Sequence record: NC_041936.1
DNA: 64,000 nucleotides
From: Escherichia phage ECD7
Strand: one strand, 5' to 3'
Shown here: positions 3,140-60,456 of the stretch, piece after piece
How the letters are laid out: every line of letters begins with the position of its first letter
Numbering within the stretch: position 1 is the first letter of the stretch
Made by a program: the position numbers and the translations under genes
Notes under the pieces: model-generated
The model's input: the letters and a program-made list of their open reading frames with translations, nothing else
Databases searched by the model: none
Told to the model about the DNA's origin: nothing

Positions 3140-3169
3140 TATTAAATCCTCATAAAAGAAAAGGGAGAC

Positions 3170-3203
3170 TCCCATTATAGAGAATCTCCCTTGTATGTCA
3201 AGT
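3170..3203 (-). promoter_or_regulatory. sigma70-type early promoter
   Basis: Minus strand TTGACA-16nt-TATAAT just after the gene 39 stop. Confidence 0.5.
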
Positions 3204-22340: not shown

Positions 22341-22365
22341 ATAATCACCTCTCACAAATTACATC

Positions 22366-22393
22366 ATTAAAACGGGGAGTATTTATACTCCCC
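22366..22393 (-). promoter_or_regulatory. stem-loop with TATAAATA in the loop between genes 45 and 44
   Basis: GGGGAGTA-TAAA-TACTCCCC perfect inverted repeat; possible late promoter or attenuator. Confidence 0.35.
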
Positions 22394-22405
22394 ACAAACA
22401 TTATA

Positions 22406-23092
22406 TTAGTCGGTGTAGCTGGAGTCAAGGTCACACGCGATCATATAAGATACGGTTTCACTTGCCAGCCATACAGCCTTACGGCGAGTGAAGCTCAGTT
22501 TGTAATCGCCGAAGTCAGTAGCAACCAGTTTCATGTTATCTTTACGAATAAAGAAATGGAAGTCTGCGGTTCCGGTATATTCGCCCATATCAAGACAAAA
22601 CATCTCATTAGGATTATTTTTGTCAATCTCTTCCCAACCTTTGATCATCAGACGACCATCAATCGGAAGAAATTCAAGGCGATCCACTTTAAGCTGATTG
22701 CTCATTTTCATAAGCTGTTTCAGATCGTCGTTGCTCAGTTCGTAATCTACATCGCTTGCAGGTGGAGTAACTCGGCCTTTCGGTGATACGATAGCAGCAG
22801 CACTAGCACCAGGGTAATTAATTTTCAGACGATCATTAGACACACGAATGTTACCAGTGCGGTCATCAACCGTAATATCTGCTTCATCGCCTACCAGATT
22901 CAGAATACCCAGGAAAGAGTTAAGATCATAGATCCCGATTTCGTGTTCCAGTTCTTGATTCAGAGTCGCTTCACCATATACAACGTTTGTCATGTTTTTG
23001 GTGATTAGGACGTTTCCTTTTTTCAGGATGATACCTGGGTTAATAGCGGAAAAGTTTTTCAGGGTAGCAATGGTTTCTTTAGTCAGTTTCAT
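22406..23092 (-). CDS. 45: sliding clamp gp45
   Basis: ATG 23090-23092; MKLTKETIATLKNFSAINPGI resembles T4 gp45 N-terminus. Confidence 0.9.
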   Translation of the reverse strand: MKLTKETIATLKNFSAINPGIILKKGNVLITKNMTNVVYGEATLNQELEHEIGIYDLNSFLGILNLVGDEADITVDDRTGNIRVSNDRLKINYPGASAAAIVSPKGRVTPPASDVDYELSNDDLKQLMKMSNQLKVDRLEFLPIDGRLMIKGWEEIDKNNPNEMFCLDMGEYTGTADFHFFIRKDNMKLVATDFGDYKLSFTRRKAVWLASETVSYMIACDLDSSYTD

Positions 23093-47555: not shown

Positions 47556-47777
47556 TTAGATGACCTCTGCTTCACCATCCAGGAAGAAAGACCATGTTTT
47601 GTTAGGATAGCGAAGCGCCCATGATTCAGCAGTTTTAACACCAGATTCGAACAATTGACGACTGGTTACTTTAGCCATACCATCTTCGATGGCAACGTTT
47701 TCAATAATCATCGGGTAATTAGCGCCACGCATGAAACCGAAACCAGCGGAAGATTTGATAATTTTAACAGTTGCCAT
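47556..47777 (-). CDS. hypothetical protein
   Basis: 73-aa ORF. Confidence 0.4.
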   Translation of the reverse strand: MATVKIIKSSAGFGFMRGANYPMIIENVAIEDGMAKVTSRQLFESGVKTAESWALRYPNKTWSFFLDGEAEVI

Positions 47778-48498: not shown

Positions 48499-48833
48499 TT
48501 GTAACCCTCCTCTGAAAGCACATCCCAGATCGTTGCGTCAAGATGCATTAAATTCCACATAATAGAATCATAACTACCGAAGCCAGAAGTAAAAATTACA
48601 TCACACTGGCGATAAGTCTTATGAAAATCGGTAGCGGTCTCTGCATCAATAGGCATATCGTCACCGGAAAGCACCAGACATTTAAGAATCATAACTCTGT
48701 TAGCCGTTGGCGCTTGCTTAGTCTTTTCAGCATATTTTTCGATGATCCGTTTTGCCTTTTCTTCTTTGATACGTCCAGACCAAATCCGGTTTCGGTATTG
48801 ATTCATAATAATTTCAATCACATCATTTTGCAT
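48495..48833 (-). CDS. hypothetical protein
   Basis: 112-aa ORF. Confidence 0.4.
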   Translation of the reverse strand: MQNDVIEIIMNQYRNRIWSGRIKEEKAKRIIEKYAEKTKQAPTANRVMILKCLVLSGDDMPIDAETATDFHKTYRQCDVIFTSGFGSYDSIMWNLMHLDATIWDVLSEEGYK

Positions 48834-49099: not shown

Positions 49100-49125
49100 A
49101 CGAAAAAGCCACCCTTTCGGATGGC
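49100..49125 (-). terminator. intrinsic terminator
   Basis: Minus: GCCAUCC-gaaag-GGUGGC then UUUUUCGUUUUU. Confidence 0.65.
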
Positions 49126-49359
49126 TTTTGATTATATTTTATTCACGTCCATTTGTATAGTAGTGTTTGAATCGACCTTTGCTAAACTCGTTAAACATAG
49201 TAACCAATTTACCATCCCTTTCCAATGATAACCCTTCCTCGTCTTAGATGGGTCTTCCGATTCGGCAGTAATTGAACACGCGAAAGTATGAGGAAGCCAA
49301 ATGGTTGTGTTAATGCTAGTATTCTTTTACTTCTGGTATGTATCCCAATGTGACTAACA

Positions 49360-49758
49360 TTAAGCCAATCGAGTGAGTTTATAAATTGTTTTAAAGCATA
49401 GAGCTTTGATATCGTCTAAAACGCTCTGTAACGAGCTATCAACATCATTATAAATCTCACTAGCCATTTGCGTTAACTCTTGCAAATAGGCAATTTCGCT
49501 CATCTCCTTGCGGACGACCAACGTTGGCTGATAACGACCAGTGATCCCAATATTGGTTTCAGTGAAATCATCAACCAATTCTTGCATTTCAAGATAGAAC
49601 TCTTCTAGAGCCTTATGTTTTGCATAAGATCCAGGACCAGTTACCCCAAAATGCGCAGAATGCATATAAGTAACACTCATCAGACATTCACCGATAAAGC
49701 GGTCAACTTTATTAGCTTTCCCCTCTTCGGACGTCTTTCGAAAATCACTGAATTTCAT
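49360..49758 (-). CDS. hypothetical protein
   Basis: Internal ATG 49756-49758 (MKFSDFRK...) with GGAGAA SD. Confidence 0.45.
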   Translation of the reverse strand: MKFSDFRKTSEEGKANKVDRFIGECLMSVTYMHSAHFGVTGPGSYAKHKALEEFYLEMQELVDDFTETNIGITGRYQPTLVVRKEMSEIAYLQELTQMASEIYNDVDSSLQSVLDDIKALCFKTIYKLTRLA

Positions 49759-50047
49759 GTTCTCGATTCTCCATATTATGCAACATAACAAACTGTTGTG
49801 CGGCATATTCCCCCATAATAAAACACTGCTTAGAATCCATACATTTACTACGAGCATACATCTTCATAATATGGGCATGAAATTTCTGGCTGGTTTCAAT
49901 GGAAGGAGATATTTTGTTTACATATACTATCATTGCACCGTCGAAATAATCAGTAAAGTCACCAGTTGGATCATATTGATCAGCACTGACACTTCCGACC
50001 GCAGTCAAGCATATTGCCGCTGTTAGAGTTTTACGAATAAATGACAT
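49745..50047 (-). CDS. secreted protein with N-terminal signal peptide
   Basis: MSFIRKTLTAAICLTAVGSVSA signal-like N-terminus; late promoter and SD-sequestering hairpin upstream. Confidence 0.5.
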   Translation of the reverse strand: MSFIRKTLTAAICLTAVGSVSADQYDPTGDFTDYFDGAMIVYVNKISPSIETSQKFHAHIMKMYARSKCMDSKQCFIMGEYAAQQFVMLHNMENREHEIQ

Positions 50048-50051
50048 AAGT

Positions 50052-50095
50052 CATTCCCCCAGATTAAAAATATTCAGTTATATTTATAATCTGGG
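50052..50095 (-). promoter_or_regulatory. late promoter TATAAATA within a 10-bp stem hairpin that pairs with the SD
   Basis: Minus: CCCCAGATTATAAATA...TAATCTGGGGG then ATG; arrangement resembles the T4 soc/e regulatory logic. Confidence 0.55.
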
Positions 50096-50115
50096 GCTTT
50101 ATTTATGATTAACTC

Positions 50116-50712
50116 TTATTTGGTAGTACCGTCAATAAAATGTTTACGGCACACAGAGACATATTTATCCTCTGCACCAACTTCTATTTGAGCACCATCG
50201 CGAATAACATTACCCTCTTTATCTACACGAAGGACCATTGTTGCTTTCTTGCCACAATGACAAATACCCTTCATTTCGACCAGTTTATCAGCAAATGCCA
50301 TTAATGCCGCAGATCCTTCAAATAGATTGCCCTGAAAGTCGGTGCGAAGGCCATAGCACAGTACAGGGATATTTGCATCATCGACAAGCGCACACAAGCC
50401 TAAAACATGCTCTTTAGTCATAAATTGGGCTTCATCTACAAATACAGCATCAGGACGCCATCGATCCGGTCTACGCTTACCTAACGATTCACGATAAACC
50501 AAATCGAAAAGATCATCCGATTTAGTGAAGGTGATCGCTGGAGCACTTAGACCAATTCGGGAAACAACTTCACTTTCTGAATCTCGATTATCAATCGCTG
50601 GCTTAAGAATTAATACTCGCATATCACGTTCGGTATAGTTATAAGCACTTTGTAACAGAGAAGTTGATTTGCCAGCGTTCATAGATGCATAGTAGAAATA
50701 TAGTTGCGCCAT
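50116..50712 (-). CDS. tk: thymidine kinase
   Basis: YFYYASMNAGKST Walker A, Zn-ribbon CxxC...CxxH at C-terminus; 198 aa. Confidence 0.9.
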   Translation of the reverse strand: MAQLYFYYASMNAGKSTSLLQSAYNYTERDMRVLILKPAIDNRDSESEVVSRIGLSAPAITFTKSDDLFDLVYRESLGKRRPDRWRPDAVFVDEAQFMTKEHVLGLCALVDDANIPVLCYGLRTDFQGNLFEGSAALMAFADKLVEMKGICHCGKKATMVLRVDKEGNVIRDGAQIEVGAEDKYVSVCRKHFIDGTTK

Positions 50713-53696: not shown

Positions 53697-53732
53697 GGGG
53701 GTATATTACTACCCCCGTTTTGTTGTGTCAAC
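53697..53732 (-). promoter_or_regulatory. sigma70-type early promoter (PeSL-like, GGGGGTA stem-loop)
   Basis: Minus: TTGACA-17nt-TAATAT. Confidence 0.55.
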
Positions 53733-58676: not shown

Positions 58677-59003
58677 TTAGAAAGAAACAGTTTTCAAGAA
58701 ATCCAGATTTTTAGTACCGAAAACAGAAAAGTAGTGTTTTCCTTTTTCGGTTTTAGAGAAAGCGATTGTCTTCTCTACATGGTGACGGAAGCCAGACAGA
58801 CGATCACCCAGGTCAAGGCGGCAAGCGTAAGTAGTGCCGTTTTCGAAAGTAACCTCGATTTGAGTTTTGTCATATTCGCTTTCATAGGCTTTTGCTGCCG
58901 CGTCCTGTGCTTTACGCTCGAAGTCTTCGAAGTGGAATACTTCGTTTGCGTTAGCGAATACAGAAGATTCAGAGAAGATAACTTTAACAGATACTGGTTT
59001 CAT
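58677..59003 (-). CDS. hypothetical protein
   Basis: 108-aa ORF after AAGGAG. Confidence 0.45.
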   Translation of the reverse strand: MKPVSVKVIFSESSVFANANEVFHFEDFERKAQDAAAKAYESEYDKTQIEVTFENGTTYACRLDLGDRLSGFRHHVEKTIAFSKTEKGKHYFSVFGTKNLDFLKTVSF

Positions 59004-60060: not shown

Positions 60061-60087
60061 AATAAAAAAGCCACTCCGAAGAGTGGC
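60061..60087 (-). terminator. intrinsic terminator
   Basis: Minus: GCCACUC-uucg-GAGUGGC then UUUUUUAUU. Confidence 0.7.
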
Positions 60088-60237
60088 TTATAGGGAAGGT
60101 AGCGAATCTTCCTTGTCTCCAACCTGCTAGCGGCCTAGCAAGTGAATGCTTTAGCGTACCGGATCACCCCATACGCTGTAATAAATGCGGCTAGGTGACG
60201 TCCAAATCATTCTAACCGCGCTGTCTTTAGTTCACTA
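60088..60237 (-). ncRNA. candidate small structured RNA (late promoter to terminator, no ORF)
   Basis: TATAAATA at plus 60239-60246 (minus strand), about 150 nt with several 6-bp hairpins, longest ORF 14 codons, ends at terminator 60061-60087. Confidence 0.4.
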
Positions 60238-60456
60238 TTATTTATATCGCTTTCTCTCGCGACGTTTTTGATCTTCTTCCTTGATAGAGTTAAACGCATC
60301 AAAAAGACACATGACACTGATAATGAACATAACCGTATTTTCTACGATATCCCACGGCTTCGCATCAGTACAGATCCCCCAAACGGTAAGAAATGCAAAT
60401 AGTGCAGAAGAGATCACAAGCATGATACTTGCTAAGATATAAAAAGTCATTTTCAT
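60238..60456 (-). CDS. small hydrophobic membrane protein
   Basis: 72 aa. Confidence 0.4.
   Translation of the reverse strand: MKMTFYILASIMLVISSALFAFLTVWGICTDAKPWDIVENTVMFIISVMCLFDAFNSIKEEDQKRRERKRYK

Follow-up and report, generated by a model that had tools for sequence, protein, structure and literature searches.

A hairpin enclosing a late promoter ahead of the antiholin gene rI in Escherichia phage ECD7 and its probable role as a translational gate

Lysis inhibition, the earliest known case of signalling between viruses, has the antiholin RI as both its sensor and its effector. Here, we analyse the leader of the rI gene in a 64-kb stretch of DNA from Escherichia phage ECD7 (sequence record NC_041936.1), which is referred to as the window and in whose numbering all coordinates are given. 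Features of the gene strand lie on the minus strand, which carries every gene near the rI leader. The spacer of 68 nt between the tk stop codon (TAA, 50118-50116) and the rI start codon (ATG, 50047-50045) reads GAGTTAATCATAAATAAAG-CCCCAGATTA-TAAATATAACTGAATATTTT-TAATCTGGGG-GAATGACTT-ATG on the transcribed strand and contains a hairpin whose 5' half holds a T4-type late promoter and whose 3' arm includes most of the Shine-Dalgarno (SD) sequence. We interpret this leader, with a probability of roughly 0.7, as a two-state translational gate of the type described for T4 e, soc and I-TevI, present in RB49-like Krischvirus. The locus comprises the following features:

50116..50712, minus strand: tk (thymidine kinase), with a Pfam TK match of 9.6e-52 and annotated tk in RB49 and relatives
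50087..50096, minus strand: 5' arm of the basal stem, CCCCAGATTA, lacking in RNA that begins at the predicted late +1
50081..50088, minus strand: T4-type late promoter TATAAATA (-13 to -6), overlapping the last 2 nt of the 5' arm
50074..50079, minus strand: apical loop AACUGA (6 nt), with the predicted late start G50075 inside
50068..50073, minus strand: 3' side of the upper stem, AUAUUU, pairing with AAAUAU of the promoter (50085-50080)
50057..50066, minus strand: 3' arm of the basal stem, TAATCTGGGG, including four of the five SD guanines
50056..50060, minus strand: SD sequence GGGGG, with its last G 8 nt before the AUG
50039..50056, minus strand: second local hairpin GAAUGAC-UUAU-GUCAUUU, whose loop contains the A and U of the AUG, persisting on the predicted late RNA
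49745..50047, minus strand: rI (antiholin), 100 aa, assigned by Pfam PF24205, phrog_1246 and alignment with T4 RI
49360..49758, minus strand: rI.-1 (DUF5856), assigned by Pfam DUF5856 (3e-21), phrog_858 (1e-43) and the RB49 annotation
49104..49129, minus strand: intrinsic terminator closing the rI/rI.-1 unit, an 11-bp stem plus T run found by a terminator scan
53703..53731, minus strand: sigma-70/early-type promoter TTGACA-17-TAATAT, about 3.65 kb upstream of rI

The last gene of the unit, rI.-1, overlaps the end of rI with its start by 14 nt. Judged from its sequence, the 100-aa open reading frame (ORF) behind the hairpin is the antiholin RI, a lysis-timing protein. It matches the Pfam family PF24205 (T4-like virus antiholin family) with 1.6e-23 and 82.8 bits against a cut-off of 27, and PHROG 1246 (lysis inhibition) with 3.7e-26; BLASTP aligns it with T4 RI over the full length (26% identity over 95 aa), and the PDB chains 6psk and 6psh of the crystallised T4 antiholin are matched at an E value of about 0.01. 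As read by eye, the N-terminus is composed of MSFIRK, a 14-residue hydrophobic core and a putative cleavage point between VSA and DQ, which aligns at most 2 residues from the site in T4 RI, whose signal peptide is cut after Ala24 (PMC8385771). The gene context tk-rI-rI.-1 is kept as in RB49-like Krischvirus, a genus in which rI.1 is absent. The DNA of the locus is 97.8% identical to that of RB49 and up to 99.5% identical to that of other Krischvirus isolates, and in RB49 and these other isolates the three genes are annotated tk, rI and rI.-1. An earlier note, made from the DNA alone, had predicted a small secreted protein at this place and left the gene unrecognised; profile matches and synteny identify it as the antiholin. 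The missed identity matters, because a late promoter at the tk/rI operon is known in T4 and predicted in RB49. The holin gene is located outside the window. A literature search returned no phenotype data on lysis inhibition by RB49, and a review on lysis inhibition contains nothing on rI promoters.

Two side observations concern the rI start. In phage Skers (MW748999), 13 nt are deleted at this place (120-140 of its leader L011, corresponding to window 50049-50037), which takes out the usual start codon together with the 3' half of the small hairpin. An AUG further upstream (window 50054-50052, 1 nt after GGGGG), which is otherwise out of frame, is thereby joined to the rI frame, and the product begins with MTRKTL; the deletion is either a natural variant or an assembly error. 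Secondly, an invariant out-of-frame mini-ORF of seven codons (AUG ACU UAU GUC AUU UAU UCG UAA; 50054-50031, minus strand) begins 1 nt after the SD sequence and overlaps the rI start; it is probably too near the SD sequence for use.

All elements on which the earlier note had built its proposal (the two arms, TATAAATA, GGGGG and the ATG) were found on the minus strand where it had placed them, and the coordinates confirm both the overlap of the 5' arm with the late promoter and the location of the SD sequence in the 3' arm. The 10-bp stem it described is present and was understated, as the helix extends to arms of 17 nt (50096-50080 and 50073-50057) in which 16 of 17 positions are paired and a single mismatch occurs. 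This hairpin is the longest inverted repeat within the window. The 96-nt leader has a minimum free energy of -27.2 kcal/mol, compared with -11.8 ± 2.6 kcal/mol for dinucleotide shuffles (z = -5.9), none of 200 shuffles folds as well, and its best 50-nt segment ranks 22nd in stability among 25,582 such segments on both strands. As a measure of ribosome access, the opening cost was calculated for the 85 gene starts on the minus strand, defined as the free energy required to unpair the stretch from -15 to +13 relative to the start codon. The rI ribosome site is the costliest of all, with 26.3 kcal/mol compared to a median of 6.9 and a mean of 8.2 ± 4.1 kcal/mol. At gathering thresholds, no Rfam family was detected in the whole window, and ARAGORN found no tRNA genes in it.

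The position of the predicted late start follows from the rule that T4-type late promoters occupy -13 to -6 (Nolan et al. 2006, PMC1524935). For TATAAATA, this rule puts +1 at G50075, the sixth nucleotide after the promoter word and the fifth base of the apical loop, and any RNA started at 50073-50076 is devoid of the entire 5' arm. The earlier note had proposed that read-through RNA sequesters the SD sequence and that late transcripts beginning in the loop expose it, and the calculations bear out both halves of this proposal as predictions. On read-through RNA, the computed probability that the SD sequence is paired is 0.98 (unpaired, 0.02) at an opening cost of 26.0 kcal/mol, whereas on RNA starting at 50073-50076 the unpaired probability rises to about 0.3 and the cost falls to 9.2 kcal/mol. 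The identical calculation for T4 gene e gave 16.4 kcal/mol for the read-through RNA and 4.7 and 2.3 kcal/mol for the two late RNAs, so that the gap is larger for the rI leader (26 vs 9) than for T4 e (16 vs 2-5), whose hairpin is reported to reduce lysozyme synthesis about 100-fold (PMC3014915).

A gate of this kind presupposes two RNAs, and the transcriptional setting was analysed in the window and in the published predictions for RB49. Neither the window scan nor the RB49 predictions place an early promoter between tk and rI. The promoter at 53731-53703 corresponds to the predicted RB49 early promoter Pe:52389, after which the next predicted early promoter of RB49 falls downstream of rI.-1, and it is the likely source of an early tk-rI read-through RNA. 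Similarly, no terminator on the gene strand was found between tk and rI, either by the window scan or by TransTerm in RB49, while the terminator at 49104-49129 corresponds to the RB49 TransTerm terminator 47750-47767 ('ORF084c<--rI'). The hairpin itself was considered as a Rho-independent terminator of the sense strand and rejected: the helix is followed on the minus strand by GAAUGACU, which has no U tract (2 U in the 8 nt past the stem), and it was called by neither scan. Since there is no sense-strand terminator, tk mRNA should run into rI. The distance between the tk stop codon and the stem is at least 13 nt in all leaders, and a terminating ribosome should thus not open the helix.

For the late RNA, only 17 late promoters have been predicted in RB49 (Nolan et al. 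2006, PMC1524935), and one of them, the Pl:48756 (48714-48756, minus strand) obtained with a hidden Markov model, coincides exactly with the tk-rI spacer. Words resembling late promoters show a strand skew in the window, as all four TATAAATA and 14 of the 17 NTAAATA are located on the minus (coding) strand. A second such word, CATAAATA (50107-50100, minus strand), is found 19 nt ahead of the main TATAAATA, an arrangement reminiscent of the tandem late promoters of T4 e. It is partly kept, about half of the leaders having xTAAATA, and was set aside as a second late promoter owing to its poor conservation and to the fact that its RNA would keep most of the 5' arm. Control by RegB was rejected as well, because the leader is devoid of GGAG (the SD sequence of T4 rI is GGAGG).

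Conservation was assessed in 13 distinct leaders, whose rI proteins range down to 74% identity. The 57 GenBank genomes of Krischvirus are at least 96% identical at the locus, with the exception of JK32 (92.9%). In seven of them that were aligned, a 9-bp core, CCCCAGATT/AATCTGGGG, is invariant, and the tenth basal pair, A50087-U50066, is polymorphic with U, A or C at 50066. More diverged leaders were obtained by a protein search, which yielded metagenomic relatives of RI with 74-84% identity; all of their contigs contain tk, a hairpin with TATAAATA, GGGGG and the same AUG context. Throughout the set, the spacer before the stem and the loop diverge while stem, promoter, SD sequence and AUG context stay: TATAAATA is unchanged in 13 of 13 leaders with the adjacent loop varying, and GGGGG is unchanged in all of them. 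The upper-stem pairs (28-45 to 33-40) are conserved only in part, and the six tested pairs of the small AUG hairpin (59-74 to 64-69) are invariant in the 13 leaders.

The 9-bp core is constant across the 13 leaders save for compensated changes in the most distant one, L026, which has AAG for AGA in the 5' arm and CTT for TCT in the 3' arm. Two neighbouring pairs are thus swapped in a compensatory way (G-C to A-U and A-U to G-C), and in addition a C-G pair is changed to U·G. In the 13-sequence alignment, 92.6% of the cells are paired, compared with 35-52% when the partners are slid by 1-3 columns, and three pairs are changed on both sides, a number equalled in 1 of 500 shuffles. On the other strand, A·C mismatches would replace the G·U pairs of L026 and JK32, and the RNA of the rI sense thus appears to be the structured molecule.

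Based on these data, we infer the following sequence of events. Early in infection, polymerase from the early promoter upstream of tk would cross the tk-rI spacer and yield a read-through RNA bearing both arms of the 16-17-bp hairpin, whose 3' arm would hide GGGGG and prevent initiation at rI. After the onset of replication, gp55-directed polymerase would use TATAAATA in the 5' half of the hairpin and start at about G50075 in the apical loop, giving an RNA without the 5' arm. Its leader of 28 nt would be A/U-rich with an accessible SD sequence, tempered by the small residual AUG hairpin. RI would then be made, exported via its signal peptide, and ready when the late holin T appears. The T4 soc/e-type mechanism that the earlier note had suggested is thus supported by the in silico tests, namely pairing, opening cost, compensatory changes and the lack of a terminator, and strictly late expression of RI, which it had also put forward, is what this model predicts. 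Since the residual 9 kcal/mol are due to the small AUG hairpin, only moderate translation, short of the maximum, is predicted for the late RNA.

The mechanism is a textbook one, and the late promoter at this spot had already been predicted in RB49, so that the rI leader is a new example of a classic T4 device and no new mechanism. Helices cut by an internal late promoter have been established or proposed for T4 e, soc, 49, I-TevI/II/III and segB and for Aeh1 mobE (PMC3014915, PMC2988022); rI is missing from the gene lists of both of these reviews, one of which lists RB49 as having no apparent gene e (PMC3014915). A late promoter combined with SD sequestration at an antiholin gene appears to be undescribed in the literature searched. 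The closest parallel is T4 e. In both cases, a lysis-related gene is located on long early transcripts (for Krischvirus rI, as predicted from sequence), the SD sequence is paired to an upstream segment overlapping TATAAATA, and the late start, predicted in the case of rI, is downstream of the 5' arm. Unlike e, rI encodes an antiholin rather than an endolysin, has one late promoter instead of two, and possesses a longer helix, a predicted start in the apical loop and a residual AUG hairpin on the late RNA. With T4 soc, gene 49, I-TevI/II/III, segB and Aeh1 mobE, it has in common the logic of late proteins encoded on early or middle polycistronic RNA. As there is no sequence similarity among these leaders, each of them looks like an independent invention.

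A second instance is present in the window itself. The ORF at 18990-18166 (minus strand) encodes an HNH homing endonuclease (phrog_12434, 5.7e-131) and is inserted in gene 43, encoding DNA polymerase, which is split into an N-terminal fragment (20341-19133) ending near motif A and a C-terminal part (17955-16549). In the leader of the endonuclease gene, AAUGUAUAUAAAUAUUGAUAUACAUU-GGAGG, TATAAATA lies in the 5' arm of a hairpin (~19030-18995) that pairs GGAGG, with extended pairing covering the SD sequence, and its opening cost is the third-highest of the gene starts analysed. The insert is covered by only about 10 of 62 matching phage records, JSE matching half of it, and no Rfam intron match was found at the split gene 43.

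Several points weigh against a gate at rI. With four occurrences in the window, all on the minus strand, compared to 5.6 ± 2.2 in shuffles on both strands, TATAAATA is not enriched; enrichment was dropped as an argument, and the weight of the promoter motif comes from its position and conservation. The covariation stems from a single diverged lineage, L026, the other stems being identical, and a metagenome search with the pattern TATAAATA-N14-26-GGGGGAATGAC gave 74 matches including 3 true relatives, all of them RB49-like, and no new stem diversity; in IMG/VR, no relatives were found by protein or by leader DNA pattern. The start site on the late RNA is still moderately structured, so that the 'on' state may be partial. 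Upstream of the locus, TransTerm predicts a terminator between vs and tk.4 in RB49 which could reduce the amount of early RNA reaching tk-rI, and RNase III or other processing of the 17-bp helix could change the outcome. T4 and RB69 have neither a terminator nor a helix enclosing the late promoter ahead of the rI operon, which indicates that the hairpin is not required for rI function in general. Finally, the literature searched, which did not extend to the mapping of RB49 5' ends by Desplats et al. 2002, contains no 5' ends, early/late RNA data or protein data for Krischvirus, and the PhageExpressionAtlas paper mentions neither RB49 nor Krischvirus.

Among other explanations, the helix could mainly serve mRNA stability or processing, either as a stabiliser of the tk 3' end or as a site for RNase III or RNase E. 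A near-perfect 17-bp helix between two cistrons does resemble the intercistronic processing hairpins of phages, and the helix belongs to the most stable local structures in the window; we found no processing-specific feature and no Rfam match, though, and such a role leaves unaccounted for the exact overlap of the arms with late promoter and SD sequence as well as the predicted +1 in the loop, a geometry common to T4 e, I-TevI and the HNH gene of the window. As the main function of the helix, this is unlikely; a processing role and a translational gate are mutually compatible.

Less probable still is an intrinsic terminator for antisense RNA of the plus strand, with an incidental effect on rI. 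On that strand the helix is followed by the T-rich tail CTTTATTTAT, an A-rich tract ahead of the 5' arm, read as a U tract in antisense RNA, is fairly conserved, and the records of TB34, G2494, G37-3 and G5211 annotate a 'terminator' here, that of TB34 on the strand opposite to the genes. There is, however, no gene on the plus strand in the window for such a terminator to serve, nor any [AT]ATAAATA on that strand in the 64 kb; even the relaxed word NTAAATA occurs only 3 times on it, never within 10 kb upstream. TransTerm in RB49 and the window scan called the hairpin a terminator on neither strand, antisense RNA would have A·C mismatches in place of the G·U pairs of JK32 and L026, and both the coincidence of 3' arm and SD sequence and the invariance of TATAAATA inside the helix would go unexplained.

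It is very improbable that the inverted repeat acts as DNA, be it as the operator of a dimeric regulator or as a cruciform modulating the late promoter, in analogy to I-TevI autorepression. Although the late promoter does lie inside a palindrome and intron endonucleases are known to have operators that overlap T4 late promoters (PMC2988022), a spacing of 30 bp between half-sites and a variable centre would be atypical of an operator, the compensatory changes preserve pairing rather than sequence, G·U wobbles are meaningless in duplex DNA, and no candidate binding protein is apparent. That an AT-rich spacer folds and contains TATAAATA by chance is hardly credible: despite the lack of enrichment of this word and about nine further perfect 10-bp inverted repeats in the 64 kb, the z value, the length of the repeat and the top rank among 85 opening costs stand against it, as do the conservation of arms, promoter and SD sequence amid diverging flanks, the compensatory changes, and the homologous late promoter ahead of the rI operon in many genera.

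The translational gate proposed for Krischvirus can be compared with the arrangement of rI in other T4-like phages. The T4 rI.1-rI-rI.-1 operon is transcribed from two promoters, a late one between tk and rI.1 and an early one 3.3 kb upstream (PMC2962797), and in the T4 sequence TATAAATA occurs directly after tk. Krischvirus agrees with T4 in the orthologous genes, in the late promoter straight after tk, and in the early promoter at a similar distance. It differs in that T4 and RB69 possess rI.1 between the promoter and rI, with an open rI.1 ribosome site, and in that T4 rI has a small local SD/AUG hairpin just past the rI.1 stop codon. The promoter word is also present immediately upstream of the rI operon in RB69, RB43, Miro, PG7, VP8, Serratia 4S and Rgz1. 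A late promoter at this place, with TATAAATA seen in eight other genera, is general among T4-like phages. In RB43, Miro, PG7, VP8 and 4S, a terminator hairpin with a T run is located wholly upstream of TATAAATA and blocks early transcription, whereas in Krischvirus the promoter is inside the hairpin, the SD sequence is in its 3' arm, and translation is predicted to be blocked. The terminator plus late promoter of the RB43 type would likewise confine rI expression to the late period. A promoter enclosed in an SD-sequestering hairpin at rI thus appears to be specific to Krischvirus.

Time-resolved omics of T4 classify rI as 'middle-RNA_late-Protein', like soc, and rI.1 as 'early-RNA_late-Protein', like e (PMC9697503 supplements). 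According to these classes, RI acts as a late protein despite its earlier RNA. That both RI and RI.1 of T4 are late proteins despite early or middle RNA makes the timing of RI a general question.

A small hairpin whose loop contains the A and U of the rI start codon recurs across genera with differing sequences: GAGGCC/GGCCUU in T4 (L003 ~1210-1185), GAGGGAC/GUCCCUU in VP8 (L005 ~887-907), GAGGGCC/GGUCCUU in 4S (L006 ~875-895), and GAAUGAC/GUCAUUU in the window (50056-50039). Positions +4, +6 and +7 show compensatory changes. In phages with rI.1, this hairpin pairs the SD sequence and directly follows the rI.1 stop codon, an arrangement suggestive of translational coupling. RB43, Miro, PG7 and Acj61 lack the hairpin.

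With respect to its significance, the leader is a concrete, mutable element that should make RI late-only in RB49-like phages. It would add a gene encoding neither an endonuclease nor a structural protein to the short list of genes controlled by gates formed by a late promoter in a hairpin, and it corrects database annotations in which the hairpin is called a terminator of the non-coding strand. More tentatively, late-only synthesis of the antiholin might have been selected across T4-like phages through at least three unrelated devices. The first would possibly be the terminator followed by a late promoter, as in RB43, Slopekvirus, Karamvirus and others; the second, perhaps, the local SD/AUG hairpin behind rI.1 in T4, VP8 and 4S; and a third device might be the promoter-in-hairpin riboregulator of Krischvirus, which is without rI.1. 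We regard this generalisation as doubtful, and if it holds, selection acts against premature RI, the timing of RI with respect to the holin T is part of the lysis-inhibition clock, and the leader is a handle for testing this clock.

Three further sites of the window show related features. The second-highest opening cost, 21.8 kcal/mol, was obtained for the site at 3146-3195 (minus strand), where the putative start of a 111-aa ORF (ATG at 3175) is found inside a strong hairpin; the chosen start codon may be wrong, and the hairpin may be the RB49 TransTerm terminator after gene 60plus39 (RB49 3163-3190). In the gap between gene 45 (sliding clamp) and gene 44 (clamp loader), the sequence GGGGAG-TATAAATA-CTCCCC-GTTTT (22355-22406, minus strand) forms a terminator-like hairpin whose loop is the late-promoter motif. 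At 60238-60246, TATAAATA coincides in part with the stop codon that ends a 72-aa membrane ORF (60456-60238); the roughly 270 nt after it are free of ORFs and contain the most stable 50-nt structure of the window (60066-60115, -24.3 kcal/mol); by offset, this structure matches the RB49 terminator 58720-58737, after which the early promoter Pe:58699 is located.

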